Origin: a virus
Taxonomy: Duplodnaviria > Caudoviricetes
Strand: one strand, 5' to 3'
Length of the DNA stretch: 64,000 nucleotides
Virus record (IMG/VR): IMGVR_UViG_3300032030_000038
Location: 1 to 64,000 of that record
Below are positions 1,723-40,959 of the stretch, piece by piece. The notes below the pieces were generated by a model. It searched no databases, was not told the DNA's origin, and saw nothing but the letters and a program-made list of their open reading frames with translations. Both the position numbers and the translations under genes were made by a program. The stretch's first letter is position 1. Every line of letters starts with the position of its first letter.

Positions 1723-3825
1723 ATGTCAGTTAAAAAAATAAAACTACCTGATGGCTCTGTTGTAGATATTAACGACAGCAGAATACATATATACCGTACT
1801 TTAACTGGTACAGCAGCAGACACTGTTTCTCCATATAGTCATACAAAGTGGGATGTAACAGATAGCACAATTACCGAATATGTTGACGGTATGGTTGTGT
1901 GCCTTAAAGTCCCGGTTGCTGGTAATGGTATTTATGGAACTGGTTTGCAAATCAATGATCTTGGTTACAAGCCTGTTGTATATAATGTAAACTCTATGAT
2001 ATCAACACGTTATAGTGTTGGTTCAATTGTTTGGTGTGTTTACAATGCAACACAAACAGCTTCATTGTATATCAACTCAACTTCTGCTGTAACGGTTACC
2101 GGTTGTTGGCAGGTGATGGACTATGACACAAGCACCAGGGAGGCATATGCGGTAATAGACTACTATTTCAGACCATACGCCGGAGCGGAACCCATATACC
2201 GCTACAAGTTGTGCGCGATGGGCGTTGACAACAGGATGGTGCCAATCACGGTGACAAACCAGACATCAGAAACACTTGTTGACAAAGCACCCACGCAGGT
2301 CGGATTCCGCCCTCACAAGATTTGGCTGTACAACACTACTGGAACTGTCAATGCCGGAGCGGTTTTTGCCGCTCAGAAATTGTATTCCGTGTGCTATTCG
2401 CCAACCGGCTGTCTTTACAATTTCAACACGGACGTGCCGACTTACAGGCTGATATTCCTCCGTGGCAAGTACAACAAGAAGACCGACCTGTTCACTCTGC
2501 GCAAAGACGCGGGATCGCCCTGCACCTCATATTACGCTGTCGTGCCTATGGACACGGCGAACATCACATTGTCGGACTACTTTTCCGCCGATGACTGGTA
2601 CATACTCGTAGGTTGCACATATTCAACGGCAAACTACCTGAGTGTGTTCGACAACAACCCGATGTTCTACTTTGACGGGACAAACCTCGTACAAGGGCAG
2701 ACGGCTCTTAACCCGACAAAGGTCAGCGAACTTGACGACATGGCGATATTGTCGCCTTCGGACGGGCAAGCACTTGTTTATAACGATACTTCAGGCAAGT
2801 GGGTGAATAGTGATATCACTACAGAAGTGCTTATGTGTACGCTGACTGCCTCTGGAACATCAGACCCCGACACGGGAGAATGGACTATGTCGTACTCTTG
2901 TGATAAGACTGATGCCGAAATTTATGCTGCTTATGTAGCAAATAAGAGTGTGCTATTAAAAGTTGTTGGCGAAGATCATAGTTGGGATACAAATGCCCCA
3001 GAAACATATACAATATACAGACTTGCGCTCGCACAATCTTCAACTGGTGGAAATAATGAACCTTGGTATTTTTTCTCATTTCAAAATAGTACATCATCTC
3101 TTTATGAAACCATAAAGATAGTATCGCCAACAGCACTGCCATCATTCGTTTATTTACTACATATTGATAGGGTATCGGGAGACCTTTCAAATACAACATT
3201 ATCATCTGTTACGCCAGGTTGGTATTTCTCTTCTGATAGCATCAGAAAACCTCAAAATGCAACAATCGGAAACCTTGCAGAGATACGCGCCAATGGAGTG
3301 TATGATGACAGCGGTATTTCAAAAACAAGTGTAAGCACAGCCGTCACCAACTCCCACACACACTCAAACAAGACCGTTCTCGATTATATACCAGCCTCAT
3401 TAGGAACGGCAGGACAAGTACTTAAAGTGAACAGCGGTGCAACAGGACTTGAGTTCGGTACGGTAAGTGGAGGTCTTTCCGACCACGACTTTACACACAC
3501 CGCAAACACCACGATTAGCAGCAGTACCACAACTGTCACATTTGCCGCCAATACCCGTGGTACTGCAATGCTCACAATCTCAGCCGACCTCGGTCTTACA
3601 ATTGCTTGCAACAATGGTAGCGACAACTATATATGGGTGAAGAATACTGGTAGTTCTGATGTTGATATAACTATATCGGCAGTAACTCAAAACAGTACAA
3701 ATGTAAGCAATGTGTATATGCCTTCGGATGGCATTACCGTCCCAGCTGGAGGTTTGTGCGAATTAGGAATTATTGTTAATGTCGATGGAGCATTCATAAC
3801 ATCACGAAACGATTTAACATTATAA
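1723..3825 (+). CDS. mosaic tail fibre / receptor-binding protein
   Basis: Shares the KIKLPxG N-terminus with the upstream gene; contains ELDDM..SPSDGQALVYN..GKWVN, HTHSNKTVLD and GTAGQVLKVN fibre motifs. Confidence 0.7.
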   Translation: MSVKKIKLPDGSVVDINDSRIHIYRTLTGTAADTVSPYSHTKWDVTDSTITEYVDGMVVCLKVPVAGNGIYGTGLQINDLGYKPVVYNVNSMISTRYSVGSIVWCVYNATQTASLYINSTSAVTVTGCWQVMDYDTSTREAYAVIDYYFRPYAGAEPIYRYKLCAMGVDNRMVPITVTNQTSETLVDKAPTQVGFRPHKIWLYNTTGTVNAGAVFAAQKLYSVCYSPTGCLYNFNTDVPTYRLIFLRGKYNKKTDLFTLRKDAGSPCTSYYAVVPMDTANITLSDYFSADDWYILVGCTYSTANYLSVFDNNPMFYFDGTNLVQGQTALNPTKVSELDDMAILSPSDGQALVYNDTSGKWVNSDITTEVLMCTLTASGTSDPDTGEWTMSYSCDKTDAEIYAAYVANKSVLLKVVGEDHSWDTNAPETYTIYRLALAQSSTGGNNEPWYFFSFQNSTSSLYETIKIVSPTALPSFVYLLHIDRVSGDLSNTTLSSVTPGWYFSSDSIRKPQNATIGNLAEIRANGVYDDSGISKTSVSTAVTNSHTHSNKTVLDYIPASLGTAGQVLKVNSGATGLEFGTVSGGLSDHDFTHTANTTISSSTTTVTFAANTRGTAMLTISADLGLTIACNNGSDNYIWVKNTGSSDVDITISAVTQNSTNVSNVYMPSDGITVPAGGLCELGIIVNVDGAFITSRNDLTL

Positions 3826-3829
3826 TATT

Positions 3830-4333
3830 ATGGCTACAAGAGAAAATGAACAATATTATTATTTCAAAATGCGGCTTGGCAGTCCTTATGAAATAAAGGT
3901 TACTGCTGTTCATATCAATACAGTCATTAATCTTATTTATCGTGAGATGACTAATGAACAAAAAGAGTTCTATCTTGAACACCCTACTGCAAGTGTTATG
4001 GAAGTGTGGAACTGTCAATTAATTCCTCCGTATGTTCCACCTACGCCTGATGTACAGGAATATGCTTCTATGCGAGTTAAAGAACTTAAAGATGCTTGCT
4101 ATGCCTCAGTAAAAATCACTGACCTTGAATATGCAATGGCTGAAGATAAAGTGAATAATGTACTTGCTGATAGTTATTATTCTCTTGCGGAAGCAAATGC
4201 TATACTTGCTTTATTTCGTACACAGAGCAAGAAGGCGGTTACAGTTTATGACACGTACAAGACCAGGATAGAGGCTGCTGTAAGCGTGGAGAGCATTGAC
4301 TTGATTTATGAAGAAGCGATTAATAGTTTATAA
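3830..4333 (+). CDS. putative tail fibre assembly chaperone-like protein
   Basis: Directly follows the fibre gene; helical C-terminus (KELKDAC...RIEAAVSVESID) resembles fibre chaperones. Confidence 0.4.
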   Translation: MATRENEQYYYFKMRLGSPYEIKVTAVHINTVINLIYREMTNEQKEFYLEHPTASVMEVWNCQLIPPYVPPTPDVQEYASMRVKELKDACYASVKITDLEYAMAEDKVNNVLADSYYSLAEANAILALFRTQSKKAVTVYDTYKTRIEAAVSVESIDLIYEEAINSL

Positions 4334-4335
4334 TT

Positions 4336-4539
4336 ATGGATGTTAGAGTTGAAAAAAATTGCAATTTAGCCAACGTACCAATCCCAGATAAAAAAGAGAG
4401 TAAGGCGACCGTGTACGCCGTGATGCGTAGCGAGGGACACAGTGATGACCTTGTGACGTGCTTTTTCTCGCCGGATGATGCGGTTGAACACTGCAAAGGC
4501 AAATACAATTATTATGTGATTGACAGTAATGTGTTTTAG
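4336..4539 (+). CDS. hypothetical protein
   Basis: ORF tightly packed after the previous stop, AT-rich leader. Confidence 0.45.
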   Translation: MDVRVEKNCNLANVPIPDKKESKATVYAVMRSEGHSDDLVTCFFSPDDAVEHCKGKYNYYVIDSNVF

Positions 4540-4614
4540 TTATTCTCAAGGGGCTCACATTATCGGAGATTAATGACTATTTCAATATGATATAATATGA
4601 CTAATACGCATAAT

Positions 4615-4800
4615 ATGGAAGCAACGATACAACAACAGGACAATAGGATTTTCAATATTATGATGGCTATCGTGGCCGCGTTTCTCCTTCTATGCGCTGA
4701 GATGGCGTGGCACAATGCGGGCTACCGCACAACGGTCACCGAATCAGCTACAATGCAATGGACATCAGACACGAGCTGGGTGAAAGGAGGGTGGAAATGA
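4615..4800 (+). CDS. small membrane-anchored protein (alternative start 4597)
   Basis: Hydrophobic IMMAIVAAFLLLCA; ends KGGWK with ATGA overlap into the next gene. Confidence 0.5.
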   Translation: MEATIQQQDNRIFNIMMAIVAAFLLLCAEMAWHNAGYRTTVTESATMQWTSDTSWVKGGWK

Positions 4801-5456
4801 GACGAGAAAATGAAATAAAAAGCTCGATAGTGCTCCCTGAACCGTATGTTCATTGTCCATTTACATCTAATGCCACAGATTTGAAGGGCAACCTAACGTG
4901 GAGTATCAATACGGTAAGCACCTACGATGCCACACTCGGAGCAAGATTTGGCGGTAGCAACTATATGCGGGCCTACAACCAAATATCATTGCAAAGGTTA
5001 AAGACTATGTGCTACTATGTGCGTTTTGATGTGATTCCTACTGACGGAGTTTCATCAACGTGGCAAACACCACACTATATACGTTGTAACAATACTGCAG
5101 GTTTCAGGTATTACAGTTTCCTTCAGCATTTCAGTGTGGAAAATGCGGAGCTTACAAACTGTGCAATTATAAACAACTCATTCTCAGTTGAAAACAATGT
5201 GTTAACAACCCCTTTTGGATCAACACTAATCAACACTTGGTACAAGATAGTATTAAGGGTCAACGAGTCTAACAACAATGTCACCGTGTTTATTGATGAC
5301 TTGAAAAGAGACATAAATGCGATGGTCCCGTTGTCTTACTCCTGCGACATAAGACTTGGCTGCAACGATAACACCCAACGCTATCTGCGCGGCTATATTA
5401 AGGATTTCCGTATCTGGGATGTTGAACTCACTGATGAACAAATAGCACAATTATGA
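4797..5456 (+). CDS. LamG/concanavalin A-like lectin-domain protein (putative receptor-binding accessory)
   Basis: Start reassigned to ATG 4797 (ATGA overlap, AAAGGAGG 6 nt upstream); NTWYKIVL..VTVFID..IRLG..YLRGYIKDFRIWDVELTDEQIAQL is a typical LamG C-terminus. Confidence 0.7.
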   Translation: MRRENEIKSSIVLPEPYVHCPFTSNATDLKGNLTWSINTVSTYDATLGARFGGSNYMRAYNQISLQRLKTMCYYVRFDVIPTDGVSSTWQTPHYIRCNNTAGFRYYSFLQHFSVENAELTNCAIINNSFSVENNVLTTPFGSTLINTWYKIVLRVNESNNNVTVFIDDLKRDINAMVPLSYSCDIRLGCNDNTQRYLRGYIKDFRIWDVELTDEQIAQL

Positions 5457-5737
5457 GAAGACACCACGAAAAAAAAAAAACAGAATCACAGGAGTATTAC
5501 CTGTTTAGATACCCGCTCACTCAAGACGGGGTGAACCAAGGCAACCTTCCCGAATCGCAATATATAGGGAAATTAAGGAATTACGGAAGCACAACAATAA
5601 CGCCATCATTTAATGATAACCTTACTTTCGATTCTTATTATGGCAAGTTGGCACATAGGCATACAGGATGCACGGACAAACTTGTGTCACTTGTTGATTA
5701 CAACAATTTCAGCCTCAATAAGGAGTATGATGAGTAA
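5453..5737 (+). pseudogene. probably truncated paralogue of an MRR-starting tail accessory gene
   Basis: Begins MRRHHEK..YLFRYPL, similar in style to the upstream MRRENE..YVHCPF gene, but ends after 94 aa; contains an A12 tract. Confidence 0.35.
5469..5480 (+). repeat. poly-A homopolymer (12 nt) within the 5' end of an ORF
   Basis: acaccacg-A12-cagaatc read directly. Confidence 0.9.
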
Positions 5738-5770
5738 TTAAAGTAAATATAAATTTAAACATTTTAAATT

Positions 5771-5905
5771 ATGGGTACAAAAGCAAGACCGACAAAATCA
5801 ACACAAAGATCAACAACAAAACGCATACCAACCCGTCCTGCTTCAGGAATGTTTGGTGTAATTCCCCTTACAAAAGCAGGGTCCAGAAAGAAAACAAGAA
5901 AGTGA
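5771..5905 (+). CDS. small highly basic peptide (44 aa), absent from the ORF track
   Basis: MGTKARPTKSTQRSTTKRIPTRPASGMFGVIPLTKAGSRKKTRK*; AT-rich leader; TGA-T-ATG junction to the next gene. Confidence 0.65.
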   Translation: MGTKARPTKSTQRSTTKRIPTRPASGMFGVIPLTKAGSRKKTRK

Positions 5906-5906
5906 T

Positions 5907-6287
5907 ATGAAAGTAAATGATTTAAGGAAAGCTATAAGACTGTTACAAATATTTCCTTTTGTAATCTCAGCAGTCTTTCTTTTAGTTTATTTCTTATGTT
6001 TTATAGGGTATGACATTTCAATTGCGTTGTGTCCGATATTTGGTGTGTCGTTGTTTGCCTTATCAGTAATTACACTGGTTTCAAAAAGGTTGCATGTATC
6101 ATCCTGGTCAATGTTTTTCTACTACTTATTGATAGTTGTAACTTGTATAGATATAGTAGGTATGCTTGCTCCAATAGCAAATGCTATGATTGATGCTTCG
6201 GGTATTAACTTTATGTTACTTACCAGCGGTGGTTTCGGTTCATTTATAACTTATCTTCATGAGCGATTTACGAACATTTCTGCTTAA
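5907..6287 (+). CDS. integral membrane protein (3-4 predicted TM segments)
   Basis: Several long hydrophobic stretches (IFPFVISAVFLLVYFLCFIG; IALCPIFGVSLFALSVITLV; MFFYYLLIVVTCIDIVGML). Confidence 0.7.
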   Translation: MKVNDLRKAIRLLQIFPFVISAVFLLVYFLCFIGYDISIALCPIFGVSLFALSVITLVSKRLHVSSWSMFFYYLLIVVTCIDIVGMLAPIANAMIDASGINFMLLTSGGFGSFITYLHERFTNISA

Positions 6288-6552
6288 TGCATTTGACTTT
6301 CTTGAGTTTGGTTTTAGTTTGTACCGCAGAGGAGTCTGTGACAAACGAATCAAAAATAACTATCATTTGGATGAAACTTCCGAAATTCATGGTTATACCA
6401 AGAAAGAGGCGTCTACTTTGTTAGGGTTATCGGAAAGACAATTCGACAGACGTATTAAAAATGGTGAACTGCCTGCTGGTAAGAAAGTTAGAAATTATAC
6501 AACTTTGTTTTGGAATAAAGATCTTATAGATAAGATGTCTAGATTGAAGTAA
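6259..6552 (+). CDS. helix-turn-helix DNA-binding protein (excisionase/AlpA-like winged HTH)
   Basis: YTKKEASTLLGLSERQFDRRIKNGELPAG...LFWNKDLID pattern. Confidence 0.75.
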   Translation: MSDLRTFLLNAFDFLEFGFSLYRRGVCDKRIKNNYHLDETSEIHGYTKKEASTLLGLSERQFDRRIKNGELPAGKKVRNYTTLFWNKDLIDKMSRLK

Positions 6553-6586
6553 CTCATAATTATTTGGTTTTTAGTTTGTTATTATG

Positions 6587-6621
6587 AAGCGATGACTGTA
6601 ATTTGCAGCCATCGCTTTTTT
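6587..6621 (+). terminator. intrinsic terminator-like hairpin after the HTH gene
   Basis: AAGCGATG(6587-6594)...CATCGCTT(6610-6617) with further inner pairing, followed by a T-run. Confidence 0.65.
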
Positions 6622-6633
6622 ATTATACCTTTG
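6602..6633 (+). promoter_or_regulatory. Bacteroidota sigma-A type promoter (-33 TTTG, -7 TAnnTTTG)
   Basis: TTTG 6602-6605, 20-nt spacer, TACCTTTG 6626-6633; about 50 nt upstream of ATG 6685. Confidence 0.75.
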
Positions 6634-6684
6634 CCATACAGAATTCTGGTAAACTATATTGATTAATTTTAAACTTTCAAAAAA

Positions 6685-7614
6685 ATGTCTGAAACAAAAA
6701 CTTATGTTTTTCCCGAAAATGGTGGCTCCGATAACGGTCTTATCGCTTTGTTAGCTCCGATGCTTCAGAACAGGGGTATCGATCCGTCTGTTCTTTATGC
6801 TTTGAATAACAACAACAATGGTGGTTTATTCGGTGGCAATGGTATGTGGGGTGGCCTTATCGCCCTGATAGTTATCGCCGGTCTGTTTGGCGGTAACGGT
6901 GGTTTCTTCGGAAACAACAATAACTCAAGTACTGAACGTGATATGATTATGAGTGCTATTCAAAGAAACGGCTCCGACCTTTCCCAGCTTGCTGCTTCCC
7001 TTAACACGACTACTTCCCAGGTGCAGAATGGTATAAACAATCTTGCCACTGCTATGGCTACTCTGAGTGGTCAAAACGGCCTTAGCGCACAGCAAATCAT
7101 TAACTCTATCCAGAGTGGCAACCAAGGTATAATCAGCCAGCTGGCAAGCTGTTGCTGCGATACCCGTAATGCTATCACCACCCAGGGTTATGAAAACCGT
7201 ATTGCCAATCTTGAACAAACCAATGTTCTCGGTAGCAAGATGGATATGAATACCAATGCTCTTGCTGCTCAGATTGCAGCCCAGACTACTGACATCAACA
7301 ATCATTTCTGTGCCCTTGAAACCCGTGAGCTGCAGAACAAGATTTCCGCTTTGCAAGATGCCAACACTGCTCTGAAGAGTCAGATTGACAATGCTGCCCA
7401 GACTGCTGCCATCCAGGCTTATCAGGCTCAAATGATCGCTCCTATCAATGCTGCTTTGTCTTCCATGCAGAATGAGCTTACCACTATCAAGGGTCAGCTC
7501 CCTGCCACTGTGACTGTTCCCAGCAACCAAGGTGTGTATCTTCCTGCCGGTGTGGCTTATGCTTCTGGCTTGTATGGTTATGGTTATGGTTACAATAACT
7601 CTCTTTGGGGATAG
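6685..7614 (+). CDS. Gly/Asn-rich TM + coiled-coil protein with a CCC motif (function unknown)
   Basis: GLFGGNGMWGGLIALIVIAGLFGG hydrophobic segment, Q/N-rich heptads, SCCCDTR, Tyr/Gly-rich tail; codon use richer in G/C than the flanks. Confidence 0.85.
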   Translation: MSETKTYVFPENGGSDNGLIALLAPMLQNRGIDPSVLYALNNNNNGGLFGGNGMWGGLIALIVIAGLFGGNGGFFGNNNNSSTERDMIMSAIQRNGSDLSQLAASLNTTTSQVQNGINNLATAMATLSGQNGLSAQQIINSIQSGNQGIISQLASCCCDTRNAITTQGYENRIANLEQTNVLGSKMDMNTNALAAQIAAQTTDINNHFCALETRELQNKISALQDANTALKSQIDNAAQTAAIQAYQAQMIAPINAALSSMQNELTTIKGQLPATVTVPSNQGVYLPAGVAYASGLYGYGYGYNNSLWG

Positions 7615-7623
7615 GAGGTGACT

Positions 7624-7977
7624 ATGATTAATCCTAATTATGTCTCACCTCTTATCTATGCCAACAGACGTGGCATCCCACGTTTTGCATCTGACAGCCT
7701 GGCTGTGAATACTGCAGATGTTACTTATTCCTTCAACGGTTTTCCAAGGAACACCAATAACTTCTGCGGGGTGATAGCTTTCAAGCTTTCCCAAAGCCTT
7801 GAAGGTGCTGCGGCAACTCTTCCTGTGATATTCAATCTTGGAGGCAATAATGTGAATCTCACGTACCTTGATGATGTGAATGTCACTGCAGGTGATCTCG
7901 GTGGAACAGGTACTTACCTTGTGTTCCTGGATTGTCAGAGCAATACGTTACAGTTATTAACAGGTTATTCAGCTTAA
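7624..7977 (+). CDS. small beta-rich protein (function unknown)
   Basis: ATG 7624 preceded by AGGAGGTG; alternating hydrophobic pattern. Confidence 0.75.
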   Translation: MINPNYVSPLIYANRRGIPRFASDSLAVNTADVTYSFNGFPRNTNNFCGVIAFKLSQSLEGAAATLPVIFNLGGNNVNLTYLDDVNVTAGDLGGTGTYLVFLDCQSNTLQLLTGYSA

Positions 7978-7988
7978 TTTTATAAACA

Positions 7989-8489
7989 ATGTTCAGTGGT
8001 TTAAGAATAAACAGTCCCTTTTACATCCTTGAGACAAAGGACAGAGTCAAATTGGCAAACGGGTATGTCACCTGGGTGAGCAACCCGTACCCTATGTTCA
8101 AGCAATACTCTGGCTCAAACAATATGTATGACCAAGTTGTTGATATAAAGGTTTGTGTCGATGGCAATGAAGTTGAGTTCAAGCAACTCCCGTCAAATCT
8201 GTCAATAGTGAATTTCGGCAATGACGGTGTGATTGTGTCGGATAGCAAGGAATCTATGCTTAATGAAGTCACCAGTATTCGTGAGAATAGCAAGTTGCAA
8301 CTTGAAAAGACGAAGTACTATGAAGAAACTTACGCTACTTGTGATGAACTTGTGCGCGAGTTGGATCCCAAATCTGCAAAGGAATATGAGTATGATACCA
8401 AGATATCAAAACTTGAAGAAAAGGTTATTGGTATAGAATCTAACATCACTGATATAAAAATCATGCTTAAGGAGGCATTAAACAAATAA
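7989..8489 (+). CDS. hypothetical protein, beta-rich N-terminus plus C-terminal coiled coil
   Basis: MFSGLRINSPFYIL...VDIKV; KISKLEEKVIGIESNITDIKIMLKE heptads. Confidence 0.75.
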   Translation: MFSGLRINSPFYILETKDRVKLANGYVTWVSNPYPMFKQYSGSNNMYDQVVDIKVCVDGNEVEFKQLPSNLSIVNFGNDGVIVSDSKESMLNEVTSIRENSKLQLEKTKYYEETYATCDELVRELDPKSAKEYEYDTKISKLEEKVIGIESNITDIKIMLKEALNK

Positions 8490-8490
8490 T

Positions 8491-8706
8491 ATGACTATGA
8501 TTGAAATTTCTGAAGGCAAATATGACAAGATGTCTTCCCTTGTTGAAGAGATACTTTCCGCAGGTGGCAAGCTCATGAGCTGCATTGAAGGTCTTGGCGA
8601 AGCTTCTTATGGTGAGCGTAATCGCAGAGGCTATCGTGACGATCGTGAGGAAGATGATTACCGCAGCGGTATGCGTGGTGGAATGCGTAGATATCCTAAC
8701 TACTAA
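8491..8706 (+). CDS. small protein with an Arg/Gly/Asp-rich disordered tail
   Basis: YGERNRRGYRDDREEDDYRSGMRGGMRRYPNY; TAA-T-ATG junction. Confidence 0.7.
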   Translation: MTMIEISEGKYDKMSSLVEEILSAGGKLMSCIEGLGEASYGERNRRGYRDDREEDDYRSGMRGGMRRYPNY

Positions 8707-8709
8707 ACT

Positions 8710-9129
8710 ATGAAGACATCATTATACACTTGGGAAAAGTTTCCTGAAGACATGACCAATTACCTTAAAAACTATGGTATGCACTTTTCAAAGAAGATGT
8801 ATGAGTTTGCTGCCAAAAGAATGTATAAGGTAAACAAGCAAAACGGTTCAAAAGAAAAGCCGCCAGTCTATACAAAGGAACAGGTCGAGAATACATTGAA
8901 GCGATACAACATAACACTTGAGAACAATGTTCTGTATGATGCTGCCTATGTAATGTCAATGGCTGTGGCCGACTTCTTTCATTCCTCGCTTGTAAACGAG
9001 CAGCAACTCGCACAGTTTGTGAAGGACTACATTGATGATGTTGACCAGCCAGACGGATTTGTTTTCAACAGATTCTATGGTGATTGCATACTCAGTGGTG
9101 AGCCTATCGATTGGTCGGATATGTTATGA
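8710..9129 (+). CDS. hypothetical helical protein
   Basis: YLKNYGMHFSKKMYEFA...YDAAYVMSM..DFF..S...DYIDDVD..DG; operon packing. Confidence 0.75.
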   Translation: MKTSLYTWEKFPEDMTNYLKNYGMHFSKKMYEFAAKRMYKVNKQNGSKEKPPVYTKEQVENTLKRYNITLENNVLYDAAYVMSMAVADFFHSSLVNEQQLAQFVKDYIDDVDQPDGFVFNRFYGDCILSGEPIDWSDML

Positions 9130-9518
9130 TATCACAGGATTTGATTTTAGAGGGCTATAATTGGCATATTAAGGCGTTTTACAATTTTACATGTGATTAT
9201 ACATCTGACGTTGTAAACACTCTTTACAGGGCAAATTTATCCTCTAGACTCATTTCAAAGATAACTCCTCATCTACTGTCTTGCAAACCAAATACTGGAT
9301 TGACGTGCAGTAATACGAATGAAAACGAGAGTGTCCTGGTAATTTCAATAGCAACCTCTCCTAAAGAATTCTTGAATACATTATCCCACGAAAATCAACA
9401 TCTTGTAGGGCATATCGCAAGTAAATTCGGATTACTGCACGGCAGCGAGGAGCTGGGTTATCTTACTGGTGAATTGTTTTCCAAACAATACTATTACATA
9501 AAAGAATTTATTATATAA
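9126..9518 (+). CDS. putative zincin-like metallopeptidase (HExxH)
   Basis: LSHENQHLVGHI plus downstream EELGYLTG; ATGA overlap start at 9126. Confidence 0.6.
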   Translation: MISQDLILEGYNWHIKAFYNFTCDYTSDVVNTLYRANLSSRLISKITPHLLSCKPNTGLTCSNTNENESVLVISIATSPKEFLNTLSHENQHLVGHIASKFGLLHGSEELGYLTGELFSKQYYYIKEFII

Positions 9519-9557
9519 TTAACAATGTTTGCTTAAATGCTTCATTGGGTTATATTT

Positions 9558-9585
9558 ACGGGACTTGTAATGAGTCCCGTTTTTT
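9558..9585 (+). terminator. intrinsic terminator closing the accessory operon
   Basis: ACGGGACTT-gtaat-GAGTCCCGT followed by a T-run. Confidence 0.85.
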
Positions 9586-9736: not shown

Positions 9737-10459
9737 ATGAGTACATTCAGAGAAGTGGTCTATATGATAATGGACCAGAATAAACTTAGTAGTGATGATT
9801 CTTTTATGGAACCATCACATATTGTATTTATGCTCTCCAAAATAAGAGCTTATTTTCTTAAAGAAAAATACAGTAAGCAAAAATCCCAAGTAGCCCCTTC
9901 CAATTTCCAAACTATAAAACTGTGTTTACAGCCTGTAAACGATGCTTTGGGATGTGAATCTGCCGCCATATTGAGGAGTGACAAGAAGGTTCCCAACCTT
10001 TTATTACTGAATAATTATGAAGGGCTTGTTCAGGTCACTCCAAAAATTGGCGCTCCTATTGTTGTATCGTATGTCAATTACAATAGGTTTATGAGTGTCG
10101 GTCATGACAAGTGGCAGCGTAATACTGTATATGCTTCAATAGGACCTGATTCTTATTTGTATATTAAGTCCAATAATCCCGATATTCTTAATCTTTCGTT
10201 CATAATGATGTCCGCTGTTTTCGAAGATATCGACCTCGCAAACGAGCTCGTCAGTGATGATGATTGTGATGAGAACTGTGATCCTATGGATAATAATTTC
10301 CCTCTTGAAGAAGGACTTATCACACCCGTGATTACAATGGTGGCCCAACAGGTCTACCAAGACGCTATCAAACCTGCTGACGAGATCAATAATGCAGCTG
10401 ACGATATGAGTAATATTCACAATTATGTTTCCCGTATTACAAAAGAAAAGTATAAATAA
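9737..10459 (+). CDS. crAss-like tail ring protein
   Basis: MSTFREVVYMI.D..K..SDDS N-terminus, YLY/AVFED/FPLEE motifs; position upstream of tail-tube and muzzle genes as in Crassvirales. Confidence 0.7.
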   Translation: MSTFREVVYMIMDQNKLSSDDSFMEPSHIVFMLSKIRAYFLKEKYSKQKSQVAPSNFQTIKLCLQPVNDALGCESAAILRSDKKVPNLLLLNNYEGLVQVTPKIGAPIVVSYVNYNRFMSVGHDKWQRNTVYASIGPDSYLYIKSNNPDILNLSFIMMSAVFEDIDLANELVSDDDCDENCDPMDNNFPLEEGLITPVITMVAQQVYQDAIKPADEINNAADDMSNIHNYVSRITKEKYK

Positions 10460-40530: not shown

Positions 40531-40959
40531 TTACATTGGTTTATATACTGTTTTTCCTTTAATTTTTTCAGCCCGTAATATTTGTTTTCTATTGTTTTTC
40601 TCTTTCAAGGAAACATGAACCCATAATGGTTGGTTCAAATCTCCAAATTCCCAAATCATCTGGTCGAATTCAAAATTATTTTTTATAAGTTGAAAGAGAA
40701 AACTATTATTGTAACATTTCAAATCAGCGGCTGCACCGTTGTTTGCCATATGTTGTGAAGTTTTTGCACCTCCTACAGCTTTATTAACTTGTTCACTTCT
40801 GAAACAGGATGTTACAATAATAGGTTTTCCTAATTTTTCCCTTACCGGATCAAGAAGATGGTCCACGAGGTATTCAATATTTTTCTTTTGTTGATAATTA
40901 GGAATATTAGGTAAATTTTTAGATGACCTAGTCAACTCTTTCCAAGTAAAGTATTTCAT
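40531..40959 (-). CDS. peptidase M15 family (D-Ala-D-Ala/L-Ala-D-Glu peptidase fold), candidate endolysin
   Basis: SCFRS..VNKAVGGAKTSQH...AADL...WVHVS zinc motifs. Confidence 0.85.
   Translation of the reverse strand: MKYFTWKELTRSSKNLPNIPNYQQKKNIEYLVDHLLDPVREKLGKPIIVTSCFRSEQVNKAVGGAKTSQHMANNGAAADLKCYNNSFLFQLIKNNFEFDQMIWEFGDLNQPLWVHVSLKEKNNRKQILRAEKIKGKTVYKPM

Follow-up and report, generated by a model that had tools for sequence, protein, structure and literature searches.

The described systems that come closest to the locus studied here are phage morons and superinfection-exclusion genes (e.g. HK97 gp15, P22 SieA and T4 Imm), spanins (lambda Rz/Rz1 and the unimolecular T1 gp11), Zorya ZorA-type defence, tail-fibre bead domains and minimal zincins. 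Here we analyze a 64,000-nt stretch of viral DNA (positions 1 to 64,000 of the IMG/VR virus record IMGVR_UViG_3300032030_000038, hereafter the window), in which an initial annotation had singled out a block at 5771–9585 as a self-contained accessory system. At its core lie six genes, here called A to F, preceded by a gene for a helix-turn-helix (HTH) protein. The unit resembles morons and exclusion genes in having its own promoter and terminator, in being patchily distributed among close relatives, and in standing at the end of a late region with a putative membrane protein in the lead. It differs from them in consisting of seven conserved genes rather than one or two and in showing no sequence or fold similarity to them.

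The likeness to spanins concerns A, in which an N-terminal hydrophobic segment that may serve as an anchor is combined with a long helical region and with conserved cysteines, and whose gene often adjoins holin or endolysin genes. Unlike spanins, the unit has no outer-membrane lipoprotein partner or lipobox, is dispensable in the lineage of crAss001, and encodes five extra soluble partners. With Zorya the likeness is one of logic only, namely a membrane-anchored long helical protein with soluble partners; the unit has no MotA/MotB-like domain, nuclease or ATPase, and its PADLOC match to ZorA (E 0.03) covers the coiled coil only. From tail-fibre bead domains (Pa193 gp47, PDB 9b45, where the chain compared with B is itself a fitted AlphaFold model) B differs in being a stand-alone protein and in having no sequence similarity to them. 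Lastly, F recalls minimal zincins (MPTase-PolyVal, SprT-like, ImmA/IrrE Peptidase_M78 and CapP) by its HExxH motif plus Glu and by the presence of an HTH gene in the same operon region, but it reaches no Pfam threshold, has only about 130 amino acids and no sensor domain, and its HTH companion is of another type. No known system matches this composition.

We fetched 106 loci through E, which carries the DUF7841 domain, and through A, and compared them by tblastn and jackhmmer. The order A-B-C-(D)-E-F was found in the great majority of these loci, in many unrelated phages, and an HTH open reading frame (ORF) of about 97 codons lies directly before A in nearly all of them, so that the conserved unit comprises seven genes, the HTH gene and A to F. 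The co-occurrence in other genomes that the initial annotation had proposed as a check was thus borne out; its six-gene operon is conserved as such, but the unit also takes in the HTH gene. Among the carriers are several families of crAss-like phages (cr116_1 of the Steigviridae, cr4_1 of the Suoliviridae, cr271–273, cr1_1, cr52_1 and others), the cultured 74-kb siphovirus Bacteroides phage C3_41T2LP, dozens of IMG/VR contigs of 33–70 kb and prophage-like regions of Paraprevotella clara YIT 11840, P. xylaniphila YIT 11841 and metagenome-assembled genomes of Bacteroides, Prevotella and Alistipes. In cr4_1 the unit is rearranged to E-A-B-C, and the cultured Parabacteroides phages (PD691P3 and relatives) carry a reduced form made up of A, C and a D-E fusion. 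Relatives of E are encoded in more than 527 IMG/VR stretches, and a search of 1.84 billion representatives with the B profile recovers 336 clusters (50% identity). Pairwise identities of the cassette proteins to those of the window are only 21–60%, which means that selection, and not recent common descent, maintains the order.

That the unit is accessory is seen from crAss001 and cr116_1, two members of one subfamily. The L,D-carboxypeptidase gene gp30 of crAss001 is directly followed by gp31 and the major capsid gene; exactly at this junction, cr116_1 has the HTH gene, followed by a small HExxH ORF and by the cassette (about 3.5 kb). Since crAss001 is cultured and does not have the unit, the unit is dispensable in this lineage, for virion building as well as for lysis. 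The insertion sites also differ: the unit lies before a gp40-like ring gene in the window, after the holin gene in cr4_1, after the endolysin gene in cr116_1, and at the end of a recombination-gene operon on the early-gene strand in C3_41T2LP. Presence in cr116_1 and absence from crAss001, combined with a promoter and a terminator of its own, is the pattern of a moron. We therefore read the unit, on the strength of these comparisons, as a self-contained and horizontally mobile accessory operon of Bacteroidales phages that lies outside the core virion, replication and lysis machinery. Horizontal movement had been proposed in the initial annotation and agrees with the different sites and with the absence from close relatives; no protein of the unit has a match among core virion, replication or lysis families, as had also been claimed. 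In cr116_1, the small HExxH ORF between the HTH gene and A (115 amino acids; locus L002, 6504–6851) is a second one of its kind and is F-like only around the motif (hhalign probability 35%); E was not detected in the cr116_1 lineage.

The layout of the block in the window was confirmed in full: nine ORFs, all on the plus strand, a promoter and a terminator were present as annotated (Table 1). The gaps A-B, B-C, C-D and D-E measure 3, 11, 1 and 3 nt, and the E stop codon overlaps the probable F start in an ATGA at 9126–9129. The tight translational coupling of the six genes is thus real. The promoter, 52 nt before the A start, is an exact match to what we take to be the Bacteroides −33/−7 consensus. 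The pattern as such is not enriched in the window (seven matches versus six expected), and the −33 TTTG falls within the loop of a hairpin at 6587–6625, which was read from the sequence and not returned by a simple terminator scan. Of 23 diverse loci, however, at least 13 have a TAnnTTTG box about 50–75 nt before the start of A. At the other end, the terminator stem (9558–9580) is followed by a T-run, and strong hairpin/T-run sites occur 3′ of F in at least seven lineages (e.g. L002, L006, L010, L011, L093 and L097). The recurrence of promoter box and terminator at the same positions across loci is the real support for the unit boundaries. The initial annotation had also stressed a GC content above the surroundings. 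Indeed, GC is 0.46–0.47 across 6800–7800 (A and B) versus 0.33–0.41 in the flanks, but this is only modestly unusual and a weak signal, because the stretch 2200–2800 of the same window reaches 0.52.

The HTH protein gave weak matches to HTH_17, phrog_66 and TIGR01764, and is the presumed regulator of the operon. Two unrelated types of HTH ORF are found before A: those of crAss-like loci are HTH_17/excisionase-like, and those of prophage-like loci are DnaA_C-like. A presumed regulator gene, a promoter and a terminator of its own support the description of the system as regulated. The proposal that the genes upstream of the operon belong to the system fared less evenly: the HTH gene is conserved, and a gene for a 126-amino-acid protein with multiple predicted transmembrane (TM) segments accompanies the unit only in some crAss-like lineages (its homologues in L010 and L011 immediately precede the HTH gene), but the 44-amino-acid peptide has no homologue among the 106 loci and no Pfam or PHROG match. 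The 126-amino-acid protein gave no significant family match in Pfam, PHROGs or NCBIfam. In C3_41T2LP, a gene annotated as DNA endonuclease I-HmuI (L003, 5976–6596) lies between the DnaA_C-like HTH gene and A, and separates the regulator gene from the operon.

Table 1. Features of the accessory unit and its upstream genes in the window.
Feature	Position	Strand	Basis
Basic ORF, 44 amino acids (putative)	5771–5905	+	ORF call
126-amino-acid protein with about four hydrophobic segments, possibly a holin-like membrane protein	5907–6287	+	Sequence
HTH protein of about 97 amino acids, excisionase/HTH_17-like, presumed operon regulator	6259–6552	+	Weak family matches
Hairpin and T-run 3′ of the HTH gene	6587–6625	+	Sequence reading
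Bacteroides-type promoter, TTTG-N20-TACCTTTG	6602–6633	+	Sequence pattern
A, 309 amino acids: Gly/Phe-rich hydrophobic segment, long helical region, CCC	6685–7614	+	phrog_16490, alignment, hydropathy
B, 119 amino acids: predicted all-beta, tail-fibre-bead-like fold	7618–7977	+	
C, 166 amino acids: predicted N-terminal SH3/KOW-like barrel and two long helices (87–165)	7989–8489	+	
D, 71 amino acids: short N-terminal helix-like part and mixed-charge R/G/E/D/Y tail	8491–8706	+	Equivalent ORFs in loci
E, 139 amino acids: DUF7841	8710–9129	+	Pfam PF25223
F, about 130 amino acids: putative minimal zincin-like metallopeptidase	9126–9518 (ORF opens at TTG 9111)	+	Alignment, phrog_1365
Intrinsic terminator, 10-bp stem with five GC pairs, then T-run	9558–9585	+	Terminator scan

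A is the only protein among A to F with a hydrophobic segment. It matches phrog_16490 (1e-41), a PHROG annotated as 'unknown function', and begins with a conserved N-terminal motif. It continues with about 40 uncharged residues that are rich in Gly, Phe and Asn, the hydrophobic segment being at about residues 50–80. This is followed by a long helical region with conserved motifs, in which Q152 and C156–C158 are invariant in the alignment and which gives weak coiled-coil-type matches, and by a Gly/Tyr-rich C-terminal tail ending in an aromatic residue plus Gly or a hydrophobic residue. No longer fused forms of A were found. The PDB profile matches of A to HA2 chains of class I viral fusion proteins (E 0.086–0.75) were set aside as driven by composition. 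PDB profile searches with A, E and F returned nothing significant, and neither sequences nor alignments revealed a signal peptide or lipobox at the start of any of the six proteins. A solitary A homologue (phrog_16490, without B to F) is found at L109 5878–6759 in Caudoviricetes sp. vir215, a circular virus of 37.7 kb that is annotated with Methanomassiliicoccales as its putative host; it is encoded two small ORFs downstream of a reverse-transcriptase gene.

Across all nine proteins, searches of Pfam, PHROGs, NCBIfam and PADLOC gave only PHROGs of 'unknown function', DUF7841 and weak HTH or coiled-coil matches; no match assigns a function, in agreement with the view that these are not characterised proteins. 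In PADLOC-DB 2.0 there was no significant defence match, the best being to mad1 (E 7e-4) over 34 HTH residues. We found no paper on DUF7841, C3_41T2LP, PD691P3 or crAss-like phages together with PolyVal, and no virion proteome of a cultured carrier in the literature.

These data are best fitted by an accessory system: regulator, promoter and terminator all belong to the unit itself, which is patchy among close relatives, moves between unrelated phages of one host order and is dispensable in the crAss001 lineage. Our preferred reading, to which we give a probability of about 35%, is that the unit encodes a membrane-anchored, self-regulated envelope complex that would serve in superinfection exclusion, in defence or sensing, or in lysis modulation; which of these it is, is a guess. 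A would be anchored in the inner membrane by the Gly/Phe-rich hydrophobic segment and oligomerise through the long helical region, with the invariant CCC as a possible metal or disulfide site. B, as a fibre-bead-like beta-sandwich, and C, as a small barrel with a helical arm, would be soluble structural partners, while D, E and F might form a proteolytic submodule, as suggested by their occurrence in D-E and E-F fusions. Under control of the HTH protein, the complex would be made in the infected or lysogenic cell, and would there block or sense a second phage or adjust envelope integrity around lysis. In a more specific version, the unit would be an undescribed Bacteroidales-phage machine in which a cysteine-clamped membrane coiled coil works with fibre-like and protease partners, either excluding or sensing phages or replacing spanins, and this we regard as possible but doubtful.

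Several observations weigh against an envelope complex. By hydropathy, the hydrophobic core of A is short (10–17 residues), and its flanks have no charge bias that would settle the topology. The fold of B points to tail fibres, for which a purely cellular complex offers no explanation. A role in lysis fits the frequent adjacency to endolysin and holin genes at least equally well. Nothing that points directly to exclusion or defence was found, PADLOC giving only coiled-coil noise, and the host-type promoter is no proof of expression outside the late programme.

The adjacency to lysis genes, which the initial annotation had not mentioned, calls for closer consideration. An endolysin homologue lies 0.4–4.5 kb upstream on the same strand in about one third of the loci, representing at least six independent lineages, and in cr4_1, cr116_1, L005, L010, L091–L094, L097 and L102 the unit comes shortly after endolysin or holin genes. 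In PD691P3, holin and endolysin genes lie directly 3′ of the cassette, and in C3_41T2LP the unit does not adjoin any annotated lysis gene. The distal end of tail modules is also a classic moron site, so position alone cannot decide between the hypotheses. In the Paraprevotella clara locus (L094, 2285–3439), a gene with a Fic/DOC domain (Pfam 1e-17) and a 192-amino-acid ORF lie between the endolysin gene and the HTH gene, which fits a cargo or moron region.

A plausible, if unlikely, explanation of this neighbourhood would be that the unit is a lysis auxiliary, in which A acts as a spanin-like single-chain fusogen and the soluble partners time or license it. A would then have an N-terminal inner-membrane anchor, a periplasm-spanning helical hairpin cross-linked by the cysteines, and an aromatic/Gly-rich C-terminal end engaging the outer membrane. 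The layout of A matches this arrangement, many carriers have endolysin or holin genes next to the unit, and mosaicism and mobility are typical of lysis genes. The window has a single recognisable endolysin homologue (40531–40959, minus strand, 43% identity to the cr4_1 endolysin), which adjoins a 229-amino-acid ORF and has no membrane protein beside it, so the holin must be encoded elsewhere. The 126-amino-acid multi-TM ORF is a candidate for it, and this sole late-region multi-TM candidate lies two genes before A, directly before the HTH gene. The same endolysin homologue is 31 kb away from the cassette, which argues against a lysis auxiliary, as do the missing signal peptide or lipobox in any partner and the five cytoplasmic-looking partners, which the fusogen leaves unexplained. 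Moreover, crAss001, which does not carry the unit, keeps genes annotated as 'lysis regulatory protein' and cr116_1 keeps one, and PD691P3 has a separate gene for a TM and coiled-coil protein after its endolysin gene. Again pointing away from a fusogen, one A homologue belongs to a virus whose annotated, putative hosts are Methanomassiliicoccales, which are understood to have no outer membrane. A 'spanin' family has been reported to be TAG-recoded in crAss-like phages (bioRxiv 10.1101/2021.08.26.457843), and we found no link between this family and A.

The fold of B raises another alternative. B is predicted to have the fibre-type fold expected of a phage tail fibre, and a 294-amino-acid crAss-like protein named as DUF7841-containing (BFVD A0A8S5LXP6) matched the B fold too. 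In its 336 clusters, B is a stand-alone protein of about 110 amino acids that almost never occurs within a longer one. In the ESM Atlas, B and C matched only their own unnamed viral clusters. The B profile also picked up a giant Big_13 adhesin, which we discarded as a match to low-complexity repeats. In C, the barrel is followed by a helical region of about 80 residues. The unit could accordingly be pictured as an accessory virion appendage, a dispensable fibre with A as coiled-coil shaft and B as bead or tip, C, D and E as assembly factors and F as maturation protease. The B fold speaks for such a fibre, but we consider it rather improbable: the N-terminus of A is conserved across crAss-like phages, the siphovirus C3_41T2LP and prophage-like contigs although their attachment sites differ, the strongly hydrophobic segment of A would be unusual in a fibre, and B is hardly ever found within a longer protein. 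It would likewise be unusual for structural genes to have an HTH gene, a promoter and a terminator dedicated to them, and in C3_41T2LP the unit is placed after the recombination genes on the early-gene strand.

E is the best conserved member of the unit. It matches Pfam PF25223 (DUF7841) at 1e-24 (87.2 bits versus a cut-off of 25.2), the domain is present in 103 of 103 E homologues, and an acidic cluster (D109, D110 and D112) is invariant. A D-equivalent ORF is found between C and E in most loci, and its tail often terminates in several consecutive Arg residues. DUF7841 is fused to a D-like tail in cr4_1 gp15 and in PD691P3, and E and F are fused in a single protein of 275 amino acids (P0254, a cluster of 15 sequences); two further long forms of E were set aside as probable artefacts, leaving one real E-F fusion. 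These fusions link D, E and F to one another. F matches phrog_1365, and in 18 diverse members H93, E94, H97 and E113 are invariant, corresponding to HExxH and a third zinc ligand, the Glu 16 residues past the second His; Y117 is invariant as well. In Pfam, a single one of the 18 members matched each zincin family, with E-values of 9e-4 for MPTase, 0.01 for Peptidase_M78 and 0.019 for SprT, all below threshold, and F of the window had no match.

The combination of an HTH gene with a putative zincin brings to mind a cytoplasmic regulatory or counter-defence module, in which the HTH protein and F would form a switch like ImmR/ImmA or CapH/CapP, and host factors would be sequestered in an assembly or condensate of the Gly/Tyr/Arg-rich low-complexity parts of A and D. 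HTH gene and zincin gene do bracket the operon, one lineage has F fused to E, sticker-like G/F/Y/R segments are present in A and D, and cr116_1 has its additional small HExxH ORF upstream of A. We nevertheless hold such a module to be quite improbable, given the sub-threshold scores of F against Peptidase_M78 and MPTase, the excisionase-like or DnaA_C-like rather than Xre-type HTH proteins, and the absence of F from cr4_1 and PD691P3, both of which retain A and C.

With regard to the surroundings of the cassette, the ORF downstream of it (9737–10459, 240 amino acids) has 38% identity to crAss001 gp40, which we take to be a ring protein, and is followed by a 2110-amino-acid ORF in the position of crAss001 gp44. 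These two ORFs show that the window stems from a crAss-like phage. The upstream genes that had been labelled as tail-fibre genes gave no PHROG matches. A search for near-identical DNA among GenBank phages found none, and neither did a search for close relatives of the window through the gp40-like gene in IMG/VR. A homologue of a 379-amino-acid protein of cr116_1, which occupies the gp31 position of crAss001, was found near 87–88 kb (87269–88291 of genome C1), and the gp40-like, gp43-position and gp44-position genes begin at 9.7 kb in the window. The block 1723–9585, with fibre-like genes and the cassette, therefore occupies another place in the structural module than in crAss001.

Two kinds of atypical loci deserve mention. 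In three IMG/VR contigs of 95–167 kb (L006–L008, at about 5000–7840), A, E and F are found in pieces under translation table 11. Reading TAG as Gln in L006 did not restore the A N-terminus, and other recoding or frameshifts may be involved. Contigs of about 5 kb were considered as possible microviruses or satellites, an origin that we rejected because they are short linear fragments with the cassette alone.

crAss-like and Salyersviridae-type phages have been reported to be ubiquitous in the human gut. The ways in which these phages coexist with their hosts, keep out competitors and lyse Bacteroidales cells are poorly understood. The unit makes up about 3% of a crAss-like genome, is shared by temperate and virulent phages that are unrelated but infect one host order, and keeps a strict order even where identities fall to 20–50%; none of its genes has a homologue that has been characterised. 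This order under divergence, combined with the sharing across unrelated phages of a single host order, suggests a strong selective benefit that is specific to that host order. Since C3_41T2LP, PD691P3 and its relatives, and the prophage-like regions of Paraprevotella clara and P. xylaniphila are available as cultured carriers, the function is directly testable. If the more specific version, an undescribed machine of Bacteroidales phages, is true, the unit would represent a new multi-component envelope system in crAss-like phages, which are among the most abundant phages of the human gut.

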